Assembly: GCA_040904565.1 (NCBI GenBank)
Contig: JBBDTI010000075.1
Location: 1 to 64,000 of the forward strand
DNA length: 64,000 bases
Direction of reading: 5' to 3'
Source of the DNA: Rhodothermales bacterium
GTDB lineage: Bacteria; Bacteroidota; Rhodothermia; Rhodothermales; VXPQ01
Part shown: positions 6,147 through 56,744 of the stretch, in pieces
Numbering within the stretch: position 1 is the first letter of the stretch
Layout of the letters: each line of letters starts with the position of its first letter
Made by a program: the position numbers and the translations under genes
The notes under the pieces: generated by a model
Told to the model about the DNA's origin: nothing
Database searches by the model: none
The model's input: the letters and a program-made list of their open reading frames with translations, nothing else

Positions 6147-7447
6147 GTCGTACCAGCGTGACAGAACATTCCAACCTGGATACCTTCGAAGAGCGCGTGC
6201 TGGAGCGCCGTGTCGGTCCGTGCAGGCTGATCATGCTGCCCACGCCCGTGCAGTCGGTCGTAACCTGGCGCGGCTCGTTCATGAGCTATCCTGATCTTGA
6301 CGCCGATGAGGACCTCTTGCAGAACGTGGTCGTGTCGCTGCTGGATAAAGGGACGCGTCGCCGCGATCGGTTCGCGATAGCCGAGCTACTCGAAAACAAG
6401 GGTGCTCAGGTTCAGTTCTCGTCGGACGGCCTTTACGTCGATGTATCCGGACGAGCCCTCCGGGAGGACGTGCCGGACGTGCTCGGCCTCGTTGCCGAGC
6501 AACTTCGCGAACCGCTGTTCGGTGAAACGGAAGTAGAGAAAGCGAAGGCACGAATCGGTGCGTCCTTACGGCGTTCGATGGAAAAAACGGGCTCTCAGGC
6601 GTCCGGTGCGCTGACGCGTCAGATCTATTCCATCTCGCATCCGAACTACACCCCGGATCCGGCGGAGCGGCTGGCCCGCCTCGAATCTATCGGCCCGGAA
6701 GATGTCGTGCAGTACCACCAGCGCCATTTCGGGGGGAATGCGTTTACGCTCGCCGTCGTCGGCGATCTGGATCCTGACGAGATCGTCGAGTCCGTTCGAA
6801 AGCATTTCAGCGGTTGGAAGGAGCACGACGCGCCGCCGGCCTTTTCGGCATCGGCGGGTCCGTGTCGCGACGGGCGCACCGTCGTATCCATGCCCGGCAA
6901 GCAAAACGTCGACGTGCGTATGGGGCATCCCGTGTCGTTTCGGCGTGACGATCCCGAGTACATTCCCGTCTATCTCGCGAATTACGTTCTCGGCGGTAAT
7001 TTTTCGGCTCGACTGATGCAGACGATCCGCGATGAGATGGGCCTCACCTACGGCATCAGGTCCGGCCTGTACGGGATTACGGCGCAGTACGAAGGTCACT
7101 GGCAGGTTGCCGTCACGCTGTCCCTGGAGAACGTGGAGCGGGGTATTGAGGAGACGTTACGCGAGGTACGTACGTTCGTCGACGAGGGCCCCTCGGCAGA
7201 GGAGCTGGCCGACAAGAAGACGACCGTGATCGGATCGTTCAAGGTCGGGCTTGCTACGACGTCGGGCCTGGCCTCCTCGCTTCTTAAGAACGCGGAGCGT
7301 GGATTCGACGTGGGCTACCTGGATCGTTTTCCAGATGAGGTGAACGGCGTGACGCTTGCCGAAGCGAAAGCCGTTATTGCAAAGCACTTCAACCCCGAGG
7401 CATTTCACGTAGCCGTGGCGGGCGGGATATCGGACGCTACGCGCTGA
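6143..7447 (+). CDS. M16 family peptidase, non-catalytic partner subunit
   Basis: ATGA overlap with the upstream stop. Lacks HxxEH but has LGGNFSARLMQTIRDEMGLTYGI (R/Y motif of M16B partner subunits). Confidence 0.88.
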   Translation: MSRTSVTEHSNLDTFEERVLERRVGPCRLIMLPTPVQSVVTWRGSFMSYPDLDADEDLLQNVVVSLLDKGTRRRDRFAIAELLENKGAQVQFSSDGLYVDVSGRALREDVPDVLGLVAEQLREPLFGETEVEKAKARIGASLRRSMEKTGSQASGALTRQIYSISHPNYTPDPAERLARLESIGPEDVVQYHQRHFGGNAFTLAVVGDLDPDEIVESVRKHFSGWKEHDAPPAFSASAGPCRDGRTVVSMPGKQNVDVRMGHPVSFRRDDPEYIPVYLANYVLGGNFSARLMQTIRDEMGLTYGIRSGLYGITAQYEGHWQVAVTLSLENVERGIEETLREVRTFVDEGPSAEELADKKTTVIGSFKVGLATTSGLASSLLKNAERGFDVGYLDRFPDEVNGVTLAEAKAVIAKHFNPEAFHVAVAGGISDATR

Positions 7448-37753: not shown

Positions 37754-39484
37754 TCAGCGCACGACGACGAATCGCGCCGCCGTCCTCCGCCGCTCGGTCG
37801 TATACACGGCGAGGTATATGCCCGAAGCAAGGTGCCGGGACGGAACGCGGAGCGTCGTCGAGCCCGCCGCCGTACCCCGTACGTCGACGCGGATGCGTCG
37901 TCCGAGTGCGTCGAAGATCTCGAGCCTTCCGGCGGTCATTGCGTCGGTCTTTATATGGATGAATACCTGATCGGTTGCCGGATTGGGATACGTCTCTATG
38001 GACAGCCCATCGTGCTCTTCCACTACGCCGGACGCGGCGTCGACAGCCGCAGATGCATTCACGATGCCCCAGCCGAGCGCATTGTCCGGCTGCGTACCGC
38101 GACTTGCCGTCACACGAAGGATGTCACGGACCTGTAGGGGACTGAGCGTCGGGTTAACCTGTAGCATCTGGCAGACGACGGCACTTACGAGCGGGGCAGC
38201 GAAGGACGTACCGTTTGAGAAGCCGTAGCCCCCAGGTTCCGCTATGTAGACCCCTGTTCCCAGCGCGGCGACGTCGGGTTTGGTACGGCCGTCCGCCGTC
38301 GGGCCGAACGAGCTGAAGGAGGATCGCGAGGAGTCGGCGTTTACGGCACCCACAGCGATCACAAAATCTCCGTCTGCCGGCGTACTTACATAGTACCAGC
38401 ACCGGCTCGGCGAGGAACATCCGGAATTCCCAGCGCTGGTGACGACCACTACGCCGAGTTCGACCGCGCGATCGGCAGCCAGCGTAGTTACGGCCGTCTC
38501 TCCATCGAGGTCTTCCCGGGAATAGTTGCGCTCGCCGGGATCGAACGTCGTATAACCGAGCGACACATTGACCACGTCGACGCCCATCGACTCGAGCCAT
38601 TCGAGTCCGGCCACGAAATAGTCCTCTTCGCGATTGGTTTCGGTCGGACCATATTCGGTGATGGCGCCGAGAACCTCGGCGCCGTGGGCGGGGCCGATGA
38701 GCCGCCCGGGATCGTATCCGACGGCCACCGATGCCACGCTCAGTCCGTGAGTAAAGGCAGGCTGCGGCGATCCAACGAAGTCACGCACGTCCACCAGGCG
38801 TCCTTCCGTGGTGAGGCGCTCGAAGGCTGGATGGTCGAATCCACCAAACGGTGTATCCAGGAATCCCAGGCGCACACCCGTACCATCGATTCCCCGTTCC
38901 AGGGGAGCGATGGCCCGAATGAGGTCGAGCTGTAGGCGTGAGGGACCGTAGTCAAGGTCTCCCACCTTGAATGCGGGCCCAGCGTCTGACGGCGGCGGAT
39001 GGACTGGAGGAAGCAGCGCTACCGGCCGGACCGAACGCACGAAGCCTATCTTCTCGACGCGATCGACCTGGTCCCGAGTCAACCGTGCGCTCACGGCATT
39101 GAGCCACCGGCTCTGGACGATCGGCTCGATGCCCATCTGCCGTAGCCGCTCCGTGTAGGAGGGGGCGACCTCGAGGTTGAGACCGGCGGTATCAGACTGA
39201 CCGCGGACCCGGCGGCGCCGCAGCGCGCGGTCGGACGCCCCGGATGCGTGCGCGTCCGGCTTCCCATCCAAAAAAATCCAGTGTTTCTCGGCGTTGTGAT
39301 CGGCGTCGTGCGGTACATCCCGTATCGGGGGCCGAACGGCTTTCTGCGTGGCCGCTCGAATGGTCACCTGTGGAAATGCCGTGCGAGCCTGCGCTTCACC
39401 AGTGAGCGGCGATAAGGAGGTTATCGCCGAAAGCCCTCCAGCGAGCAGGCAGATAGCGATGCACGTGCGTGCGATTGGATTCAT
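37754..39484 (-). CDS. S8 subtilisin-like serine peptidase with T9SS C-terminal domain
   Basis: Triad motifs FLDT, THGLSV, GTSFAAP; SAGN oxyanion motif; C-terminal YPNPAT..IFDALGR..LASGIY. Start placed at MNPIART. Confidence 0.9.
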   Translation of the reverse strand: MNPIARTCIAICLLAGGLSAITSLSPLTGEAQARTAFPQVTIRAATQKAVRPPIRDVPHDADHNAEKHWIFLDGKPDAHASGASDRALRRRRVRGQSDTAGLNLEVAPSYTERLRQMGIEPIVQSRWLNAVSARLTRDQVDRVEKIGFVRSVRPVALLPPVHPPPSDAGPAFKVGDLDYGPSRLQLDLIRAIAPLERGIDGTGVRLGFLDTPFGGFDHPAFERLTTEGRLVDVRDFVGSPQPAFTHGLSVASVAVGYDPGRLIGPAHGAEVLGAITEYGPTETNREEDYFVAGLEWLESMGVDVVNVSLGYTTFDPGERNYSREDLDGETAVTTLAADRAVELGVVVVTSAGNSGCSSPSRCWYYVSTPADGDFVIAVGAVNADSSRSSFSSFGPTADGRTKPDVAALGTGVYIAEPGGYGFSNGTSFAAPLVSAVVCQMLQVNPTLSPLQVRDILRVTASRGTQPDNALGWGIVNASAAVDAASGVVEEHDGLSIETYPNPATDQVFIHIKTDAMTAGRLEIFDALGRRIRVDVRGTAAGSTTLRVPSRHLASGIYLAVYTTERRRTAARFVVVR

Positions 39485-39602
39485 GCTGTAGGCGGCTTTT
39501 GGCCGGGAGCGAGTGACGTCAGCGAACCGTTGTACCGCCTGTGCTCGGCTTCGACGTGAGGGCGGGCTCGATCGCGAGCCGGTATGGGGTTGATGTCTTC
39601 GA

Positions 39603-40562
39603 CTACAGGTATGGCAAGGCAAGATACAGCATGTAGGCACTGAATCCGGCCATCAGCACGCCCCCCTCGACGCGCGTAATGGTGAACTTCGTCCACGCCA
39701 TCGGGAACAGAACGAGACCCACTCCCAGCATCACCGGGAAATGAATCTTGAGCGACGTGGCGTCTACGTGCAGCGGCTGGTACAGGCTGACGAATCCCAC
39801 GACGAACAACACGTTGAGCATGTTGCTGCCGAGAACGTTGCCTACGGAGATGTCTGCCTCCTGCTTCAGTGCAGAGACGACCGACGCTGCGAGCTCCGGC
39901 AGGCTCGTTCCGATGGCAACGACCGTCAGGCCGATGACGACCGGGTCGATTCCCAGGAACTGGGCCACGTTCACGGCCGCGTAGACCATCAGACGGGCAC
40001 CGCCGGCGAGCACGACGATCCCGAAAACGACCAGGGCCGCCTTTTTCCAGAAGGGAGACTCGACATCCTCCGGACGAACGGCCGAGGTTTCGACAGGCAT
40101 CGGGGGGGGCTTGTGACGTTTTGCGTCGATAATGAGGTAAAGGAGAAAGGCCGCCAGGCCGGCGACGAGCAGGAGTCCGTCGGCCCGTCCGATCACCCCA
40201 TCGAGTGCCAGCGCGTAGAAGAGAAAGAGCACCGCCATCATGATGGGATACTCCTTCTTGAGCGTGGCGGGGGAGACGGCCAGCGGCAAAATGAGGGCCG
40301 TCGTTCCCAGGATGAGGGCAATATTGCAGATATTGGATCCCACGATATTGCCGAGCGCGAGACTTTCCTCTCCGGTCAGCGCTGCGAAGAAATTGACGAC
40401 GAATTCCGGCATCGACGTGCCCAGCGCGACGACGGTTAGACCAACGATCAGCGGCCGGATGCCGTACTGAAGGGCGATGCTAGCCGCACCCTTGATGAGC
40501 CATTCCGCGCCGAAATAAAGCAGCAGGAGTCCGACGACAAAGAGAAAAGCCTGCAGGAGCAT
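39603..40562 (-). CDS. Calcium/sodium antiporter (CaCA, YrbG-like)
   Basis: Two alpha repeats: GTSMPE..GNIVGSNICNI and GTSLPE..GNVLGSNMLN. Confidence 0.94.
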   Translation of the reverse strand: MLLQAFLFVVGLLLLYFGAEWLIKGAASIALQYGIRPLIVGLTVVALGTSMPEFVVNFFAALTGEESLALGNIVGSNICNIALILGTTALILPLAVSPATLKKEYPIMMAVLFLFYALALDGVIGRADGLLLVAGLAAFLLYLIIDAKRHKPPPMPVETSAVRPEDVESPFWKKAALVVFGIVVLAGGARLMVYAAVNVAQFLGIDPVVIGLTVVAIGTSLPELAASVVSALKQEADISVGNVLGSNMLNVLFVVGFVSLYQPLHVDATSLKIHFPVMLGVGLVLFPMAWTKFTITRVEGGVLMAGFSAYMLYLALPYL

Positions 40563-48697: not shown

Positions 48698-50494
48698 ATG
48701 TCGAACGAGCACTCCGGTGCGCAAGCCGTCCGTTGGAATCTAACCGATCTGTATGCCTCGAATGAGGCGCTCGAGGCGGATCTCGCGACGGCGCACGAAG
48801 CGGCCGGTGAGTTCGCAGCGAGATATCGAGGAAATGTAGGTGCCCTTCCGCCCGACGAGCTGGCTGATGCGTTACGCCGTTTCGAGGAGATTCAGGATCG
48901 GCTCGGGCGGGCGTATACCTACGCATACCTCTACTGGTCGACGGATACGAACGACGAAGCGCGCGGGGCCCTTCTTCAGCATGTACGGGAGTCGTATACC
49001 AGGACGAGCCAGCAGCTCATCTTCTTTGAAGTCGAATGGGCAAAGCTCGACGACGATCGAGCATCGGATCTGCTCGCTGCCGACGCGCTGTCGCACTACC
49101 GCCACTACCTTGAGCTCGAGCGGGTGCGAAAGGACCATCTATTGTCGGAACCGGAAGAACGCGTGCTCTCCGAAAAGTCCGTTACGGGGCGCAGCGCCTG
49201 GAATAGATTCTTCGACGAGACGCTGGGAGCAGCCCGGTTTTATGTGGATGGGGAGGAGCTGACGGAGCAGGAGACGCTTTCAAGACTTCACGATCCGGGT
49301 CGCGAGACGAGGCGCAAAGCCGCGCTGGCGCTGACGGACGGGCTGCAGTCGCACAGCCGGCCCCTCACATATATTTTTAACACGATCCTGGCCGACAAAG
49401 CCTCCGACGATCGACTGCGCGGATATCCCTCGTGGTTGTCGTCGCGAAACATGTCAAATGAGGTAGTGGATGAGACGGTCGAAGCGCTCGTGGACGCCGT
49501 TACCTCCCGCTACGACATCGTGGCTCGCTACTACCGGCTGAAGCGGAACCTGCTTGGGTACGACGAGCTATTCGACTACGACCGTTACGCTCCACTGGGT
49601 GACGCGGACACGCGGTATACGTGGGATGAGGCACGTGAGATCGTCACGGACGCTTATGCATCGTTCCATCCCCGGATGGCAGAGATCACGAGACTCTTTT
49701 TCGAGGAGCGCTGGATCGATGCGCCGGTACAGCCGGGAAAGCGGGGAGGGGCGTTCAGTCACGGTGCCGTGCCGAGTGCCCATCCGTACATCCTGCTCAA
49801 TTATACGGGCAAACCGCGCGACGTCCAGACGCTGGCGCACGAGCTCGGCCATGGCGTCCACCAATATCTGTCGCGAAAGCAGGGTGTGCTGCAAGCCGAC
49901 ACGCCGCTCACAACGGCCGAGATGGCGTCCGTGTTCGGCGAGATGATCGTCTTCCAGCGATTGATTCGTCGTGAAGAGAGTGCGACCAATCGGCTCGCCA
50001 TGCTGATCGGCAAAATCGACGATACGATCGCGACCGTATTCCGGCAGATCGCCATGAATCGGTTCGAGGATCGGATACATACGACGCGGCGCCAAGCGGG
50101 CGAGCTGACGGCGAAACAGTATGCCGAGCACTGGATGCACACGCAGCGTGACATGTTCGGAGGGAGTGTCACGCTCGGGGAGCATTACAGGCATTGGTGG
50201 AGCTACATCCCGCACTTCCTCCACAGTCCGGGTTACGTATACGCCTACGCTTTTGGGGAACTGCTCGTGCTGGCGATGTACACGCGATATAAGGATAATC
50301 CGTCTTCGTTTCCCGCGGCCTATCTCGATCTGCTGGAGGCGGGAGGATCGGACTGGCCTCACGTGCTCGTCGGTAAGGTCGGCGTGGATATGCAGGACCC
50401 GGACTTCTGGGCCAGGGGACTCGTGGCGATAGAAGACCTCGTCGACGAGGCGGAAACACTGGCGGAGCAGGTCCAGGATGCCCGTCGCGAATAG
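48698..50494 (+). CDS. pepF: M3B oligoendopeptidase F family
   Basis: WNLTDLY, GKRGGAF, TLAHELGHGVH (HExxH), AEMASVFGE, WSYIPHF..YVYAYA. Confidence 0.92.
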   Translation: MSNEHSGAQAVRWNLTDLYASNEALEADLATAHEAAGEFAARYRGNVGALPPDELADALRRFEEIQDRLGRAYTYAYLYWSTDTNDEARGALLQHVRESYTRTSQQLIFFEVEWAKLDDDRASDLLAADALSHYRHYLELERVRKDHLLSEPEERVLSEKSVTGRSAWNRFFDETLGAARFYVDGEELTEQETLSRLHDPGRETRRKAALALTDGLQSHSRPLTYIFNTILADKASDDRLRGYPSWLSSRNMSNEVVDETVEALVDAVTSRYDIVARYYRLKRNLLGYDELFDYDRYAPLGDADTRYTWDEAREIVTDAYASFHPRMAEITRLFFEERWIDAPVQPGKRGGAFSHGAVPSAHPYILLNYTGKPRDVQTLAHELGHGVHQYLSRKQGVLQADTPLTTAEMASVFGEMIVFQRLIRREESATNRLAMLIGKIDDTIATVFRQIAMNRFEDRIHTTRRQAGELTAKQYAEHWMHTQRDMFGGSVTLGEHYRHWWSYIPHFLHSPGYVYAYAFGELLVLAMYTRYKDNPSSFPAAYLDLLEAGGSDWPHVLVGKVGVDMQDPDFWARGLVAIEDLVDEAETLAEQVQDARRE

Positions 50495-50528: not shown

Positions 50529-51227
50529 CTATTCGTCGACGTCACTCGGATCGATATCCATTACGCCGTGGCGCCAGGCCCATGTGACGAGAGCGGGGCG
50601 CCATTTTTCTTCGGTAAGGGCTCGAAGCTTGTCCACGTGGTTCCGCACCGTATGTTCGGATCGATCGAGCTCTTTGGCGATTTCCTTGTTGTTCAGGCCT
50701 CTGGCCACGTAATGGAGGACCTCGAGAAGCGTGCTGTTGATTCCCAGGTCGATGAGTTCACGGCGCATACGCTCCTCGCGCGACGCTTCTTCTCGCTGCT
50801 GTCTTTTCTCATCGACGATGTCTACAGCGACGCGCGGGCTTACGTAGACACCACCCTCTGCGACGGTCCGTATGGCGGTGACGATATCTTCCAGCGATTC
50901 GTCCTTCGTCATGTATCCCGCGGCACCGGATTCGAGCAGGGCGAAGACATATTCCGGATCACGGAAACCGCTCAGCGGAAGAATCAGCACGTCGATCTTC
51001 TCGTTTTCTAGTTGGTGGGCTACCTCGACGCCCGTCATGTCGGGCATTTCCATGTCCAACAGCAACACGCAGGGGCGCTTCTCGCGTGCGAGCTTGATCG
51101 CCTCGGATCCGCTTCCGGCCTCACCAACCACCTCAATATCCGGTTCTCGATCCAGCTCCGTGCGAACGCCGGCTCGAAAGCCCGGGTGGTCATCGGCCAG
51201 AACGATTCGAATCGTAGAATTTTCCAT
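50529..51227 (-). CDS. NarL/LuxR-family response regulator
   Basis: IVLADDH, LLLDMEMP, YMTK; C-terminal HTH VARGLNNKEIAKELDRSEHTVRNH. Confidence 0.93.
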   Translation of the reverse strand: MENSTIRIVLADDHPGFRAGVRTELDREPDIEVVGEAGSGSEAIKLAREKRPCVLLLDMEMPDMTGVEVAHQLENEKIDVLILPLSGFRDPEYVFALLESGAAGYMTKDESLEDIVTAIRTVAEGGVYVSPRVAVDIVDEKRQQREEASREERMRRELIDLGINSTLLEVLHYVARGLNNKEIAKELDRSEHTVRNHVDKLRALTEEKWRPALVTWAWRHGVMDIDPSDVDE

Positions 51228-51286
51228 ACGGTCCCGTTAGCTGCCGTCTTGTTACGTGCCGCGCTGTCGCATTGGGTGCTGTTGGA

Positions 51287-54200
51287 TCACGCGTCCTGGT
51301 GTACCGGGCGTGGGGCCAGCACACGCACCGTAGTGCCGTCGCCCGGAGTGGATTCGAGGGTGAGGTTGGCTTCAATCGCCTCCGCCCATTCGGAGATGCC
51401 CAGCAGTCCGAAATGCTGACTTCGTGCCAGCGTCAACAGGCTCTTAGGAACGTTGAATCCGCGCCCGTCATCGGTGATTTCAAGGAGCACGCCGGAATCA
51501 TCCAGCTCGAAGCGCACGAGCACGTTAGATGCGTCGGCGTGCCGGATGACATTCGTGATTGCACTTTGATATATACGAAACAGGGAATGACGGAGATGCT
51601 CGTTCAGCTCCTGTCTGTCAGGCGCGAGATCAAGCGTAGCGTTCATGTTCGGCTGCGACCTCATGATCGTCCGCATATGAGCACGGATGGCTTTCTCCAG
51701 GCCGAATGGACCGAGAGAAGGCGGGCGAAGTTCGCCGCAGAGGATGCGCAGGTCTTCGGCCGTCTGCTGGACGACGCCATGGAGGTCTTCGAGCATCTTC
51801 TCGCGTTCAGAGTCGGCCGGGTCGCGAGCCAGGACCTCGATCTTGTGCCGAATCGAATAGAGATTCTGGAGCGGGCTGTCGTGCAGCTCGCGAGCGAGAT
51901 AATGCCGTTCTCGTTCTCGACCTTCCGTGAGAAGTCGTAGTGTTTCTGACTTTACGCGCTGCTCGCGATTATATCGGTACATGGCAACGGATCCTCCGAC
52001 GAGTCCGATCGCCAGAATGGCCGAAACCCGGAACCAGAGCGTCTGCCACCACGGCGGGATGATGCGCAGCCGGAGCCATACCGTGTTCCACGCGCCCTGG
52101 CTGTTTGCCGCGCGCACGCGGAAGATATACTCATCCTGCCGCGGTCTGAAGTTCGCGTAAGAAGCCCTTCCCAGGGATCCCGACATGTGCTGCCAGCCCG
52201 CGTCGTAGCCCTCCAGCCTGTACTGATACTGATGCATCGACGGATTCGTGAAGTCGAGGACGGCAAATTCGAGCGTGAAGAACCGGTCTGAGTACGAGAG
52301 GGATACGGTCTGCTCGGACGGGATTTCCCAATCGACGACCTCATCCATTTTCTTAAGCGTCGTGAATACGACGGGCGGCTGCCGGTCCTGATCGTATTCC
52401 GGCAGTGGAGGGCGGAAGTGACTGAAGCCGTTGCGGCCGCCGATGACGATCGAGCCGGTATGCGTAAGGAGGAGGGCGCCGGAACTGTACTGATTCGGAC
52501 TCAGTCCGTTGCGATCGTTGAAATGGCGCACCGTTGCCGTTTCCGGATCGAAATAAGTGAGTCGATTAGCAGCTGTGATCCAGAGGGCGCCATTTCCGTC
52601 GCCCGTAATGGAGAAATACGGTTCCGGTGTGAAGCCCTCGTCGATTGTGTAGCGGGTCACCTGTTCACTGGCCGGATCGAATCGATTCAGGCCACCGTAG
52701 GTGCCGAGCCAGAGGATGCCGTCCGCGTCCTCGTAGATCGAAGCGATCCGGTCGTGGCTCAGGGAGGCGTCGTTCCGGGGAGCGTGTCGGTACGTCGTAA
52801 ACGTTTCCGTTGCCCTGTCGAACCGGTTGAGTCCACCACCGACCGTGCCGATCCACAGCGTCCCTTTGCGGTCCTCATAAATGACCTGGACGCTGTTGTC
52901 GCTCAGCGTCGTCGGATCGTACGGGTCGTTCCGATATCTCGTGAACGTTCCTTTGACGGGATCGAGCCTGCTGAGCCCGCCCCCATCCGTTGCAGCCCAG
53001 ACGTAACCAGACGCTGCGACGTGAACGTCCAGTATCGCATTGGAGCCGATCGAGGACGGATCATCAGGTGCATAGCCGTAGTGGGTCGTTCGGCCCGTCG
53101 CGTGATCGTAGGAGAAGAGACCGTCACCGTTCGTACCTATCCAGAGGTTGCCGCCGAGGTCTTCGTCGATCCCCGTGACGACGCTGTTGTGGAACCACGC
53201 GGCCGAATTCGGTGCTTCGATACGGCGAAACGTTTCCGTCCGGAGGTCAAAGCAATCGATGCCACCTCCATCCGTACCGATCCAGAGCACATTCGGCTGG
53301 TTCGCACCGCGGTGCAGCGCGAGCACGTCGTCGTTAGAGAGAGAGTTGGGATCACCTTCCACGTGGGTATAATGTTGATGGCGTTCCTGCGCGAGGTTGT
53401 AGATGGAAAGGCCGCGGCTGCTGCCTACCCATAGATTGCCGGCTCTATCCTCGTACAGTTCGGTGACGATATTGCTTGCGATGCTGGAAGGATCGCTCTC
53501 GTCATACATGAATCGTCGGAATTGCCGGGTGGCTCGGTCGTAGCGTGCGAGTCCACCATCGTAGGTTCCGACCCACAGAACGCCTCGAGAATCCTGTAGA
53601 ATGCTCCAGACCTTGTTGTCGCCGATCGTGCCGGGATCATCCGGGGCGTGGGTGAAGGCTTCGAAGGACGTCATGGATGCATCGAGGCGGTTGAGTCCAC
53701 CTCCGGAGATACCGATCCATACGTCGCCGAACTGATCGGATTCGATGGCGCGAATCCGGTTACCCGTCAGATGCGGCGTGTCGACCTGGTCTGCCGTGAA
53801 CCGTGTGACGGTACGCGATACGGGATCGAGTCGATTTAGTCCGCCGTCCCAGGTGCCCACCAGCAGGTTTCCCTCAGCATCCTCCCCGAGGCACCAGATC
53901 TTATCGTGGCTGAGGCTTCGCGGATTGCCGGGTTCGTGGCGGAAATGTTCGAAGCGGCCGCTCTCCCTATCGAGGCGTGCGAGCCCCTCTAAGGTTCCGA
54001 TCCAGATCCTGCCGGATGCATCTTCGTGGAGCGACGTTACGACGGCGCTGTTCAGCCCGTCAGGCCGATTGCACGGCTCGACGCCGCAGTCGTAGACCGG
54101 ATAGCGGATGAACGCGTTCCGTTCTCGATCGAAGCGATTGAGTCCACCCCAGCGCGTGGCAATCCAGATGTTGCCCTCCTCGTCTTCAAGCAGGTCCTCG

Positions 54201-54520
54201 ACACGACTATCTGCCAGGGAGAGCGTGTCGTCCGACTCATGTTCGTAGACCGTAAAGCTGTTTCCGTCGTACTTGTTCAGCCCGCTCTCCGTGCCGATCC
54301 ACATGAATCCGTAGCGATCCTGGAGGATCGCATACACCACGTTATTAGAAAGTCCATCCTGAGCAGAGAGCCGCGTAAACCGGTAGCGCGTCTCATCGAT
54401 CGGCTCGGAGAACGCCGACCCTGCGAGCACAATCGTGCCACTCAACAAGATCAACAAATGTACGAGCCTGTCCGTGCACCACGTCGTCACGCTACGATGT
54501 GAAGGATAAACGGGAGGCAT
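51287..54520 (-). CDS. Sensor histidine kinase: 14 beta-propeller (Reg_prop) repeats, Y_Y_Y domain, TM, HisKA_3, HATPase
   Basis: 14 W[IV]GT.GGL..[FY]D-type repeats counted by eye; YQYRLEGYD; PPWWQT; ERHYLARELHD; EITDDGRGF. Exact start uncertain. Confidence 0.93.
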   Translation of the reverse strand: MPPVYPSHRSVTTWCTDRLVHLLILLSGTIVLAGSAFSEPIDETRYRFTRLSAQDGLSNNVVYAILQDRYGFMWIGTESGLNKYDGNSFTVYEHESDDTLSLADSRVEDLLEDEEGNIWIATRWGGLNRFDRERNAFIRYPVYDCGVEPCNRPDGLNSAVVTSLHEDASGRIWIGTLEGLARLDRESGRFEHFRHEPGNPRSLSHDKIWCLGEDAEGNLLVGTWDGGLNRLDPVSRTVTRFTADQVDTPHLTGNRIRAIESDQFGDVWIGISGGGLNRLDASMTSFEAFTHAPDDPGTIGDNKVWSILQDSRGVLWVGTYDGGLARYDRATRQFRRFMYDESDPSSIASNIVTELYEDRAGNLWVGSSRGLSIYNLAQERHQHYTHVEGDPNSLSNDDVLALHRGANQPNVLWIGTDGGGIDCFDLRTETFRRIEAPNSAAWFHNSVVTGIDEDLGGNLWIGTNGDGLFSYDHATGRTTHYGYAPDDPSSIGSNAILDVHVAASGYVWAATDGGGLSRLDPVKGTFTRYRNDPYDPTTLSDNSVQVIYEDRKGTLWIGTVGGGLNRFDRATETFTTYRHAPRNDASLSHDRIASIYEDADGILWLGTYGGLNRFDPASEQVTRYTIDEGFTPEPYFSITGDGNGALWITAANRLTYFDPETATVRHFNDRNGLSPNQYSSGALLLTHTGSIVIGGRNGFSHFRPPLPEYDQDRQPPVVFTTLKKMDEVVDWEIPSEQTVSLSYSDRFFTLEFAVLDFTNPSMHQYQYRLEGYDAGWQHMSGSLGRASYANFRPRQDEYIFRVRAANSQGAWNTVWLRLRIIPPWWQTLWFRVSAILAIGLVGGSVAMYRYNREQRVKSETLRLLTEGRERERHYLARELHDSPLQNLYSIRHKIEVLARDPADSEREKMLEDLHGVVQQTAEDLRILCGELRPPSLGPFGLEKAIRAHMRTIMRSQPNMNATLDLAPDRQELNEHLRHSLFRIYQSAITNVIRHADASNVLVRFELDDSGVLLEITDDGRGFNVPKSLLTLARSQHFGLLGISEWAEAIEANLTLESTPGDGTTVRVLAPRPVHQDA

Positions 54521-54683
54521 CTGCGGTGATGGTCCGGGAGGTTTTGACGAGGTCTCGGAGGCAGCACCCCTCCGCATGCTACCGTGCCACGCCGGCTCTG
54601 TCCATCACGGCGAGCGGAAGCGGGCCGTGTTGTGCAGTGACGTGCGGTACGGCCTCATGCTGGGTTGCACGATGCCGTGTGGT

Positions 54684-54725
54684 GCTGCGTTGTTTCTGGC
54701 GTGTCGCGCTGCGTTGTTTCGGGCG
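54684..54725. repeat. Direct repeat with 24-bp period in the kinase upstream region
   Basis: gctgcgttgtttctggcg at 54684 and gctgcgttgtttcgggcg at 54708 (17/18 identical). Confidence 0.85.
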
Positions 54726-54752
54726 CCGTGCGCCATGCTGCTTCGATGGCGT

Positions 54753-54780
54753 AAGATACTATGTTTCAGACTGTTGTAAA
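54753..54780 (-). promoter_or_regulatory. Possible sigma70 promoter for the kinase-regulator operon
   Basis: Minus strand TTTACA-N16-TATCTT. Confidence 0.4.
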
Positions 54781-54839
54781 GGGGGCATATCCCCGCGCCG
54801 ACGGAATTGGTGCGGCTCATTGCTGGCGCACGCCTGATT

Positions 54840-54891
54840 CGTAGTGTCGCAGTGTCACGACCGTAGTGTGAGAGTGCCTGCTGCGTAGTGT
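54840..54891 (+). promoter_or_regulatory. Three CGTAGTGT direct repeats with exact 22-bp period; candidate regulator binding sites
   Basis: CGTAGTGT at 54840, 54862 and 54884. The first two copies extend as CGTAGTGTnnnAGTG. Confidence 0.6.
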
Positions 54892-55161
54892 CTGACCGCC
54901 ACTCATTCAGGTAGAGATTGCCACCGGAATGGCAGTCTCAACTCATGACAATATCAACGGATACCGCGTACTTGTCTCCAGATCGTGCAGGGGCCGGTTC
55001 AATGCAGGGACTGGACTCATACAGCGCCCCGTCCCATGGACGGTCCCATATTCGGTCACATACAGCGTTCGGTGCAAGAATGCCGGTGCAAAAATGATCG
55101 AACGACGGCGGACTCCGTCGGACCACCCTCACTGTCCTACTGACTGAATTCGTAAGATGCC

Positions 55162-55335
55162 ATGAAACAATTTGTTTCCATCTTTCTCTCCGCCGTTTTC
55201 GCCTCCGCCATCTTGATCGGATGTGGATTTGTCGATAGCAATACGAGCCGTGTCGAATCCGAGGAGCCGACGACCATCGAGAGAACCAATATCGGAGCCT
55301 TTGCTACGGCCGATACCACGGGATTCGAGGGATAG
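55162..55335 (+). CDS. Small (57 aa) putative lipoprotein or secreted peptide, below the ORF-track cutoff
   Basis: MKQFVSIFLSAVFASAILIG-CGFVDSNTSRVESEEPTTIERTNIGAFATADTTGFEG*: basic N-terminus, hydrophobic core, lipobox LIGC. A plus-strand terminator follows. Confidence 0.75.
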   Translation: MKQFVSIFLSAVFASAILIGCGFVDSNTSRVESEEPTTIERTNIGAFATADTTGFEG

Positions 55336-55359
55336 TGTGAAGGGCTGTCTCTTGTGAAC

Positions 55360-55557
55360 ACAACGTCGGAAGACGTACGACAATCCGTGCCTCGTTGCAC
55401 ATCTAATGCTGCAGGGAGTAAGGGGATGACTCCCTTGCGGCCGCGAGACGGCGTCACGCAACGTGATGCCTGCACGGAACGGCGAAGTCTGACAACGGAC
55501 TTCGTATAAGGATCCGCGCCACCCGCAGCTCTCTCCGGGTGGCGCGGATTTTTTTTT
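55360..55557 (+). ncRNA. Candidate structured RNA or 3' UTR: consecutive hairpins ending in a terminator
   Basis: Hairpins at 55363-55376, 55408-55441, 55450-55470, 55483-55504 and 55512-55549. G-U pairs favour the + strand. Confidence 0.45.
55512..55557 (+). terminator. Strong intrinsic terminator
   Basis: Perfect 14-bp stem ATCCGCGCCACCCG/CGGGTGGCGCGGAT followed by a run of T. Confidence 0.92.
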
Positions 55558-55601
55558 GCTTCCTCGGTGCCGGTGCCGGTGCCTCAGGAGTAACCGGTGC
55601 C

Positions 55602-56744
55602 TCAGACGTAATCGGGGGCGCTCTGCACGTCCACCAGTTTTCTTGAGATGGTGCTGATCGACTCGGCGCCGTTGTTCGTGACGACGACATCGTCTTCGAT
55701 GCGGGCACCTCCAAGCTGTGGGATGTAGATGCCCGGCTCGATCGTAAACGTCATACCTTCCTCCAGAACCACGTCGTTGTTTGCTCGGATGTAAGGCGGC
55801 TCGTGGACGTCGAGGCCGAGGCCGTGTCCCGTTCGATGGATAAACCGGGACCCGAATCCGGCGTTCTCTACGACGGCGCGTGCGGCACGATCGACCTGGC
55901 CTGCCGTTCTTCCCGGGGCGGCCGCGTCGCGCGCTGCGCTATTGGCCTCCCTCACGATGTGGACGATGCGATGCAGATCGTCCGGTACCGGGCCGTAGCT
56001 AAACATTCGTGTCAGGTCGGAGAAATAGCCTTCGGCATTCGCCCCCCAGTCTACCAGCAAAAGATCGCCTTCAGCGAGTGGCCGGTCTCCCGGGACTGCG
56101 TGCGGGTTGGCGGTCGAGGAGCCAAAGGCCACGATTGGAGAGAAGGGCAGCCGGGGCGCGCTGCCGCCTTCAAGGAGGTAGGCAGTCAGACGGGATGCCA
56201 GCTCTCTCTCCGTGATGCCGGGCGTGACGTGCGACAGTACGCGCTCGAGCGCCTTCTCGGCGATGTGTACGGCCCGGCGAATACGTGCCACTTCGTCGGC
56301 ATCCTTACGGGCGCGCAGGACCGACAGCGCCTCGGCACCATCCACAAACGCGGCTCGTGGTGCCGCGTGCTCGAAATAGCGAAGCTCCAGTACGCGGAAT
56401 CGTTCCGGTTCGAGTCCGATCGTGGCAAAGTCGAGCCGTGCCTCGTCCGACGCCCGCTGAAACGCCCGCTGCCATGTCGTTGTGTCCTCGCCATATGCAT
56501 GGATCTGTGCATCAAAGCCGATGTTCGAAGTTTTCTCTGTCTCGAGCTCGGGCAGGACCAACAGCGGAACCCCGTCCTTGCGGAAAATACCGACGACAGG
56601 ACGTTCGCTGAGGTGGAACGAGAGCCCCGTCAAATACGTCATTGATGAACCCGCATTCAGAAGCAGCGCGTCCAGCCCCAGTCTATCGAATTGTTCGCCC
56701 AGTCGTCGCTGTCGATCTTCGAGCTGATTGTTCGGTTTGGTCAT
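55602..56744 (-). CDS. Xaa-Pro aminopeptidase/dipeptidase (M24B)
   Basis: Creatinase-like N domain; ANPH, VDWG..YFSDLTR, HRTGHGLGLDVHEPP, TIEPGIY, RIEDD. Confidence 0.93.
   Translation of the reverse strand: MTKPNNQLEDRQRRLGEQFDRLGLDALLLNAGSSMTYLTGLSFHLSERPVVGIFRKDGVPLLVLPELETEKTSNIGFDAQIHAYGEDTTTWQRAFQRASDEARLDFATIGLEPERFRVLELRYFEHAAPRAAFVDGAEALSVLRARKDADEVARIRRAVHIAEKALERVLSHVTPGITERELASRLTAYLLEGGSAPRLPFSPIVAFGSSTANPHAVPGDRPLAEGDLLLVDWGANAEGYFSDLTRMFSYGPVPDDLHRIVHIVREANSAARDAAAPGRTAGQVDRAARAVVENAGFGSRFIHRTGHGLGLDVHEPPYIRANNDVVLEEGMTFTIEPGIYIPQLGGARIEDDVVVTNNGAESISTISRKLVDVQSAPDYV

Follow-up and report, generated by a model that had tools for sequence, protein, structure and literature searches.

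Does the long gap in front of a two-component operon hold a separate unit, or does it belong, together with the kinase and the regulator, to a single signalling module? This question is raised by positions 50529-55557 of a stretch of 64,000 nucleotides (nt) from a Rhodothermales bacterium (contig JBBDTI010000075.1; the whole stretch is hereafter the window). There, a propeller-type sensor histidine kinase and a NarL-type response regulator are encoded on the minus strand, and the gap upstream of the kinase carries, on the plus strand, an array of 22-bp repeats, a small lipoprotein gene, a structured RNA and a terminator. The gene, the array, the RNA and the terminator are real and conserved, and the array recurs at the promoters of two paralogous genes elsewhere in the genome. 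By analogy with cpxP and its CpxQ RNA next to cpxRA, we propose that the locus is a lineage-specific three-part module, a reading that we hold with a probability of about 0.35. The features are as follows.

50529-51227, minus strand: NarL/FixJ-type response regulator, 232 amino acids (aa)
51287-54577, minus strand: sensor histidine kinase, 1096 aa
54753-54780, minus strand: promoter-like site, probably serving the kinase-regulator operon
54841-54928, plus strand: four direct 22-bp operator units
54914-54939, either strand: palindrome
54941-54973, plus strand: candidate core promoter of the small gene
55162-55335, plus strand: small pre-lipoprotein gene, 57 aa (acidic mature form, 37 aa)
55384-55505, plus strand: conserved structured RNA core, found by alignments, a consensus fold and separate folds
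55384-55390 with 55472-55478, plus strand: helix P1, invariant UCCGUGC pairing with GCACGGA
55414-55434, plus strand: hairpin P2, invariant loop AAGGGGAUG, given also as (A/G)AGGGGAUG
55450-55470, plus strand: hairpin P3, 6-9 pairs, sequence varying between genera
about 55482-55505, plus strand: hairpin P4, sequence varying between loci (one locus not evaluated)
55508-55557, plus strand: intrinsic terminator, G+C-rich stem of at least 14 bp, invariant loop GCUCUCUCCG, nine T

An earlier note on this DNA, made from the sequence alone, had described a minus-strand kinase with 14 propeller repeats, Y_Y_Y and HisKA_3 domains, its NarL-type regulator and, in a gap of ~1.08 kb, three repeats at an exact 22-bp period, a 57-aa open reading frame (ORF) with a lipobox, many hairpins and a strong terminator. 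Most of this description stands. The domains are all present by Pfam, the octamer CGTAGTGT occurs on the plus strand at 54840, 54862 and 54884, the lipobox ORF is where the list places it, and the terminator is evident in the fold, having escaped a simple scan because its loop is 10 nt long. The gap is there but measures 1024 nt (54578-55601), and the counts of propeller repeats and hairpins need the adjustments given below.

The lipoprotein gene, the RNA and their inheritance with the kinase

The small ORF is clearly a real coding gene under protein-level selection, judging from the codon-position pattern and the in-frame excess of synonymous changes: pairwise differences at codon positions 1, 2 and 3 amount to 0.41, 0.305 and 0.571, and synonymous codon differences number 125 in frame versus 37 and 43 in the shifted frames. 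The product starts with MKQ and a hydrophobic stretch and continues into the lipobox L-I-G-C21, which is the signature of a lipoprotein precursor, namely, a signal peptide ending in a lipobox (motif [LVI][ASTVI][GAS]C); Cys21 would begin the mature form. In the protein alignment of the five genomes, M1, K2, G20, C21, V24, D25, N27, D51, T52 and G54 are invariant, and 8 of these 10 residues are encoded by more than one codon. When 1.84 billion cluster representatives were searched with a profile, 8 clusters matched at E 3.4e-10 or better, and there were, besides these, three weak matches in long proteins. In the resulting 9-member alignment, I19, G20 and C21 are invariant, C-(G/D)-F-(V/I)-D-x-N directly follows the lipobox, D-T-x-G-x-(E/D) is conserved near the C-terminus, and no Trp is conserved. 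The product matches no Pfam (E up to 0.01) or NCBIfam family and lacks a CpxP/Spy LTXXQ-type domain.

Among the 285 genomes of the order, strong matches to the lipoprotein (E 2e-29 or better) occur in five, which are the same five that carry a kinase orthologue with at least 57% identity. Weak profile matches in 19 genomes (E 1.2e-4 to 0.009), involving mainly the N-terminal part of the profile and lying inside open frames of 103-649 aa, were taken collectively, without single inspection, to be signal peptides. A 72-aa ORF at 54929-55147 and other ORFs of the leader were rejected as not conserved because the leaders are much shorter in the orthologous loci.

The ~175 nt that follow the ORF are more conserved than the ORF itself. 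In the window, the RNA folds at -96.1 kcal/mol versus -60.8 ± 4.1 for shuffled sequences (z = -8.54), and separate minimum-energy folds of seven loci share a common helix layout. The consensus fold of five loci comprises 35 pairs. Compensatory changes affect 11 of these pairs, mostly in the terminator, the stem of which shows such changes across the five loci, and P1 is uninformative on covariation because it never varies. A covariance model of the RNA core scores 88-98 bits in exactly five of the 19 genomes of the family. Matches to this model at 21-26 bits (6 of 12 genomes of genus g8 and a second one in G005) were rejected as lying inside coding sequence, five of them in one conserved ORF of 262-284 aa and two in other coding-looking sequence. 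An Rfam search of positions 54400-55700 with cmscan, at E up to 1, returned only the terminator against isrG, at 14.4 bits (gathering score 100). The ATG in the P2 loop was discarded as a gene start, as the frames that it opens run for 10-29 codons and are unrelated past the first three.

The conserved structure is the one 3' of the ORF (55384-55557), whereas the hairpins of the 5' leader (~54990-55130) are absent from the orthologues. About 100 nt of this leader, with internal direct repeats at 55013/55054 and 55070/55084, are missing from the orthologous loci; they look like a lineage-specific insertion and explain the many hairpins of the earlier note. As a separate observation, the invariant P2 loop (GGGGA, 55420-55428) is complementary over 5 nt to the terminator loop (UCUCC, 55533-55540); a contact between the two loops is conceivable, as is pairing of the C/U-rich one with ribosome-binding sites. 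Searches of the genome, which is 94.9% complete, recovered neither Hfq nor CsrA, such that the absence of either is unproven; interpretations of the RNA as a CsrA sponge or an Hfq-dependent RNA were set aside on this ground.

The kinase consists of a transmembrane segment, a double propeller of Reg_prop repeats (E 1.5e-53), a Y_Y_Y domain, a second transmembrane segment, HisKA_3 (E 5.9e-11) and HATPase_c, which Pfam also matched; the hydrophobic segments lie at residues ~39-57 and ~848-866, and the Y_Y_Y match, at 25.9 bits, is slightly below its cut-off of 26.6. Twelve clear W-x-G-T..GGL blade signatures, spaced by ~48 residues, were counted between residues 93 and 623, with space for two further degenerate blades ahead of the Y_Y_Y part; the 14 repeats originally claimed are plausible, although the remaining two were not counted directly. 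The kinase is not a hybrid: HATPase_c ends at residue 1090 of 1096, with the regulator encoded by a gene of its own. Its start codon is uncertain, another in-frame Met being found 19 codons inward. The periplasmic part matches PDB entry 4a2l at E 3.5e-103. There is also a sub-threshold match of the propeller to the NCBIfam model of PorZ (127 bits, cut-off 260). The regulator contains a Response_reg domain (E 1.9e-22) and a GerE helix-turn-helix (E 1.2e-8), with an acidic pocket formed by DD12-13 plus D58; its best NCBIfam match is NarL, at 133.5 bits, under the equivalog cut-off of 250.

When the kinase was compared with 41 related genomes, full-length orthologues were found in G004 (63% identity), G005 (57%) and G006 (57%), and another, split between two contigs, in G003 (74% and 82%); the next-best match reached 44% and covered the C-terminal half only. 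The order regulator, kinase, gap, M24 peptidase gene, hemA, hemC is the same in all four orthologous loci, and in each of them the gap carries a small ORF with a lipobox, oriented divergently from the kinase. Scans with an exact pattern of the RNA core detected five loci in the genome collection, namely, the four orthologous genomes and one chance match, and three in the metagenome collection, namely, two full modules and one chance match; the chance matches (L095 and L101, respectively) fall within one and the same ORF, which encodes a membrane protein in an unrelated lineage. The known loci thus number seven: the window, four genomes and two metagenome loci. The earlier note had made its proposal hinge on whether orthologous loci keep the small ORF and the repeats; both are kept in 4/4 genome and 2/2 metagenome loci.

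The array, the lipoprotein, the RNA and the kinase orthologue share one phyletic distribution, and the borders of the block are sharp. In G007, a genome of a sister genus without the module, tblastn puts pepF (9192 to 7417) directly next to M24 (6284 to 7378), with hemA, hemC and hemD beyond, and matches neither the regulator nor the kinase in the 14 kb examined. In the window, positions 50529-55557 exactly fill the interval between pepF (ending at 50494) and M24 (ending at 55602), which contains the regulator, the kinase, the array, the lipoprotein gene, the RNA and the terminator. This comparison indicates that the module was gained or lost as a single block, by one insertion or deletion. 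G001 and G002 retain M24-hemACD with other neighbours.

The operator array and the genes that share it

The octamer CGTAGTGT occurs five times in the whole window, against 1.0 expected, a count reached in 0 of 100 shuffles, and the three copies at exact 22-nt spacing are the first halves of units 1-3 of a longer array. Arranging the intergenic regions at a 22-nt period, counted from an anchor that is conserved, reveals four direct units in the window, starting at 54841, 54863, 54885 and 54907, each approximating TAG(T/G)GT, 3-4 nt, A(C/T)TGCC. There are four units in G003 as well, three in G004 and two each in G005, G006 and both metagenome loci, and the register is kept in all seven loci (5 genome and 2 metagenome). 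The palindrome that ends the array (10-nt arms, 9/10 complementary, separated by 6 nt) arises where the last direct unit meets an inverted half-unit, and the inverted unit scores at a shift of -4 in five of five loci.

A position weight matrix (PWM) was built from 15 units, and the 4.02-Mb genome to which the window belongs was scanned for two units 22 nt apart. Tandem scores of 26-39 are reached at three places only: the array in the window, C72 at ~43587 and C58 at ~69479-69523. A reversed matrix and five column-shuffled ones peak at 16.4-19.2, and the true matrix at other spacings peaks at 19.8, except at 44 nt, that is, twice 22. Strict patterns did not rise above their controls: TAGKGT N3-5 AYTGCC gave 2 matches in the same genome versus 8 for the reversed control, and AYTGCC N16 AYTGCC gave 15 matches in five genomes versus 17; those matches of the latter that fall at known promoters are only the ones with the TAG(T/G)GT context.

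Each of the two additional arrays is followed, ~140-180 nt downstream, by a small ORF, one of 70 aa and the other of 73 aa.

C72, 43727-43939, and C58, 69660-69881 (loci L054 and L053): genes of the ~70-aa family in the same genome

The two ORFs are paralogues (30% identity, BLASTP E 2e-8), and their promoters share the blocks that follow the array at the lipoprotein promoter, including TGCC..GGCA pairs equivalent to the palindrome. The family is found in 18 of the 285 genomes of the order, at 27 loci. Ahead of its genes, arrays score at least 30 at five loci and a marginal 18.8 at one; counting the latter, arrays are present at 6/11 loci in genomes with the module and at 0/16 in those without. 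The proteins belong to no Pfam or NCBIfam family, have no PDB sequence match below E 0.009, and retrieve only unnamed small proteins in an Atlas search. The model predicts a helix, three strands and a helix (predicted local distance difference test score, pLDDT, 85.8), for which Foldseek returned nothing at E 0.001 or better and VIA-align a top Z of 4.6. At two loci (L078 and L079), the encoded proteins are of ~225 aa and seemingly contain two copies of the ~70-aa domain.

The core promoter that would serve the small gene can be placed in two ways, and the promoters of the lipoprotein and the 70-aa genes preserve the register of both hexamer positions. Model A pairs TTGCCA (54918-54923) with ACTCAT (54941-54946); model B, which resembles the kinase promoter, pairs ATGACA (54945-54950) with GTACTT (54968-54973) over 17 nt, bringing the palindrome near -55, an activator position. 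On the opposite strand, a consensus scan places TTTACA and TATCTT, 16 nt apart, at 54780-54753, in a block conserved in the five-locus alignment, and this site probably serves the kinase operon.

Proposed mechanism, known systems and rival explanations

The mechanism that we propose can be outlined as follows. The periplasmic double-propeller kinase would phosphorylate the NarL-type regulator, which would bind the 22-bp array and the palindrome in the shared intergenic region and activate the divergent monocistronic transcript. This transcript would encode the 57-aa pre-lipoprotein, to be processed to a 37-aa acidic envelope peptide anchored by a lipid, and would end in the multi-helix RNA of ~175 nt and the terminator; the common array would place the two paralogous cytoplasmic proteins of ~70 aa in the same regulon. 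The lipoprotein could then act as an accessory of the sensor, feeding back on the periplasmic propeller, and the RNA tail could either stabilise the transcript at its 3' end or give rise to a small RNA derived from that end. The steps are not equally secure. The adjacent regulator is probably the factor that binds the array, and, given binding, activation appears the better guess than repression. The claim of the earlier note that the regulator drives the divergent unit is plausible, the array being conserved with the same phyletic spread as the module, but the identity of the binder is only predicted. It is doubtful, taking everything together, that the lipoprotein modulates the kinase, and a stronger version, in which the 37-aa peptide, induced by the regulator through the 22-bp operator, is a direct ligand or co-sensor of the glycan-sensor-like propeller and the transcript releases a new class of structured small RNA that acts in trans by its invariant loops, without Hfq or CsrA, is distinctly unlikely.

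In Escherichia coli, cpxP is divergent from cpxRA, and CpxP acts on the kinase CpxA. The Cpx-induced cpxP transcript also yields, from its 3' untranslated region, the small RNA CpxQ, according to PMC4817254. The present locus is similar in that a gene for a small envelope protein is divergent from a two-component operon, with putative regulator sites in between, and in that a structured 3' end, which could yield a small RNA, follows the small ORF. Unlike CpxP, however, the small protein is a lipoprotein, and Pfam shows no CpxP/Spy-type domain in it; unlike in cpxRA, the kinase combines a double propeller with HisKA_3 and the regulator is NarL-type rather than OmpR-type; and, in contrast to the setting of CpxQ, no Hfq was found in this genome. 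Thus, cpxP beside cpxRA, with CpxQ, is the closest working analogy, and the module is not a member of that family. Accessory envelope proteins (extracellular proteins or lipoproteins) beside a kinase-regulator pair are known, too, from three-component systems such as HbpS-SenS-SenR of Streptomyces and LpqB-MtrAB of mycobacteria, where HbpS and LpqB are proposed to act on the external domain of the kinase; the present product has no sequence relationship to these proteins, is only 37 aa long when mature, and its interaction is only predicted.

Sensors with Reg_prop and Y_Y_Y domains have been described chiefly from gut Bacteroides, where they sense glycans; Bacteroidota and Rhodothermota contain many that are not hybrids. 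The kinase shares the homologous periplasmic double propeller and Y_Y_Y domain with the Bacteroides hybrid two-component systems, the matched structure (4a2l, with 4a2m) being what we take to be the heparin-sensing BT4663. It differs from these hybrids in the lack of fused receiver and AraC-type domains, with a separate NarL-type regulator instead, and in the lack of an adjoining polysaccharide utilisation locus: neither SusC/SusD-type or other glycan-utilisation genes nor a glycoside hydrolase cluster was detected among the ORFs of at least 180 aa scanned between 38 and 64 kb, in agreement with what had been noted before. In the excerpts returned by a literature search for Reg_prop with HisKA_3 or Y_Y_Y kinases, no study of a non-hybrid system with a NarL partner appeared. 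Should the lipoprotein indeed act on the propeller, this class of sensors would gain a protein ligand or modulator; should the RNA tail be released, it would represent a riboregulator derived from a 3' end, and this in a lineage that yielded neither Hfq nor CsrA. In any case, the module brings together a defined operator motif, a regulon of three promoters, a candidate 37-aa lipoprotein partner and an unclassified structured RNA.

Several observations weigh against the three-part module. Both loci of the ~70-aa family in G004 lack the array. The five genera are close kin, such that a single evolutionary event, instead of selection acting repeatedly, may explain why the kinase, the lipoprotein, the RNA and the array occur together, and, as the unrelated neighbours M24, hemA, hemC and hemD are equally syntenic, adjacency alone says little. 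Sites of the NarL family are usually short inverted repeats, and long direct arrays are less typical; promoter model A, furthermore, puts the palindrome over the spacer between -35 and -10, a position more typical of repression. The kinase search matched 37 propeller kinases (paralogues) in the same genome, which probably also holds many NarL-type regulators, and any of these, or another factor, could bind the array. The contact between peptide and propeller and the binding of the array by the regulator are putative. The five sequencing runs listed for 54600-55600 are all DNA metagenomes, none of them RNA. A complex prediction for the mature peptide (residues 21-57, 5-row alignment) and the periplasmic domain (residues 57-843, 12-row alignment) gave a score of 0.00 (mark 0.32) in a run without controls, which speaks neither for nor against binding.

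Under the most economical alternative, the regulator would control the unit as a plain regulon output, with the lipoprotein being no more than an effector in the envelope, for instance, in stress or at the surface, and the RNA only stabilising or terminating the transcript. We consider this possible, if doubtful: it requires nothing beyond the conserved gene, array and RNA, and the regulon includes cytoplasmic 70-aa proteins that have no evident connection with the sensor, but the lipoprotein gene lies in one block with the kinase and the regulator and occurs only where the kinase orthologue does. That the 70-aa family is more widespread than the lipoprotein fits a dedicated partner better, too, although this is only suggestive. 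Another transcription factor might bind the array, with the small gene and the RNA forming an independent unit next to the kinase for historical reasons. The many paralogous systems in the genome and the equal synteny of the unrelated neighbours are compatible with this, and yet it appears unlikely, given the lack of arrays at all 16 paralogue loci in genomes without the module, the confinement of regulator, kinase and small unit to one pepF-M24 block, and the finding of no regulator gene among the scanned immediate neighbours of the two other arrays.

The RNA could also be the main product, that is, a small RNA or an element binding a ligand or a protein, with invariant loops, AAGGGGAUG and CUCUCUCC, that target other messages, the ORF being secondary. 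The loops are more invariant than the ORF, the fold is strong, and the terminator loop, rich in C and U, complements purine-rich ribosome-binding sequences as well as the P2 loop; all the same, an ORF under protein-level selection is no mere leader, and neither of the two RNA chaperone and regulator families searched for, Hfq and CsrA, turned up, which makes this option improbable, although it is compatible with the three-part module rather than exclusive of it. The earlier note had favoured the layout of Bacillus ComP-ComA-ComX, in which the small product, or a C-terminal fragment released from it, would be a diffusible autoinducer sensed by the propeller. In ComQXPA of Bacillus, the isoprenyl transferase ComQ accompanies a peptide gene that is co-directional with, and upstream of, the kinase, the peptide carries a modified Trp, and the sensor is a multi-pass membrane protein. 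The general layout is indeed the same, with a HisKA_3-class kinase, a NarL-type regulator and a small exported product alongside, and the conserved C-terminal motif of the lipoprotein leaves room for a processed fragment that carries specificity. Four of the five defining features are nevertheless missing, the kinase-regulator pair being the only one present: Pfam revealed no ComQ-like prenyl transferase or polyprenyl synthase in the module or among the scanned ORFs, the small gene is divergent (plus versus minus strand) rather than co-operonic, the lipoprotein has no conserved Trp, and the sensor is a periplasmic double propeller. With the product expected to be anchored in the membrane through its canonical lipobox, and with no modification enzyme, dedicated protease or exporter found within the borders set by pepF and M24, we regard such an autoinducer as highly improbable.

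Neighbouring genes and minor observations

The carriers of the module are a few uncultured sediment bacteria. In the window, the gap is followed by the M24 peptidase gene on the minus strand (55602-56744), beyond which lie hemA, hemC and hemD, and the opposite flank is pepF (48698-50494). The far side of the module is not conserved, as it differs among the loci: in G003 (L025, 1093-1905) and G004 (L021, 2684-3493), the regulator is followed on the same strand by a gene of ~270 aa, and in G005 and G006, a gene of ~895 aa on the opposite strand lies beyond it, where the window has pepF.

The leader of the kinase operon, between the promoter-like site and the start codon, includes two tandem 24-nt copies at 54673-54720 that are 88% alike; they do not align as conserved across the four orthologous loci. 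Further away, at 37754-39640 on the minus strand, the window encodes a subtilase with a Por_Secre_tail sorting domain, because of which the host organism probably has a type IX secretion system.

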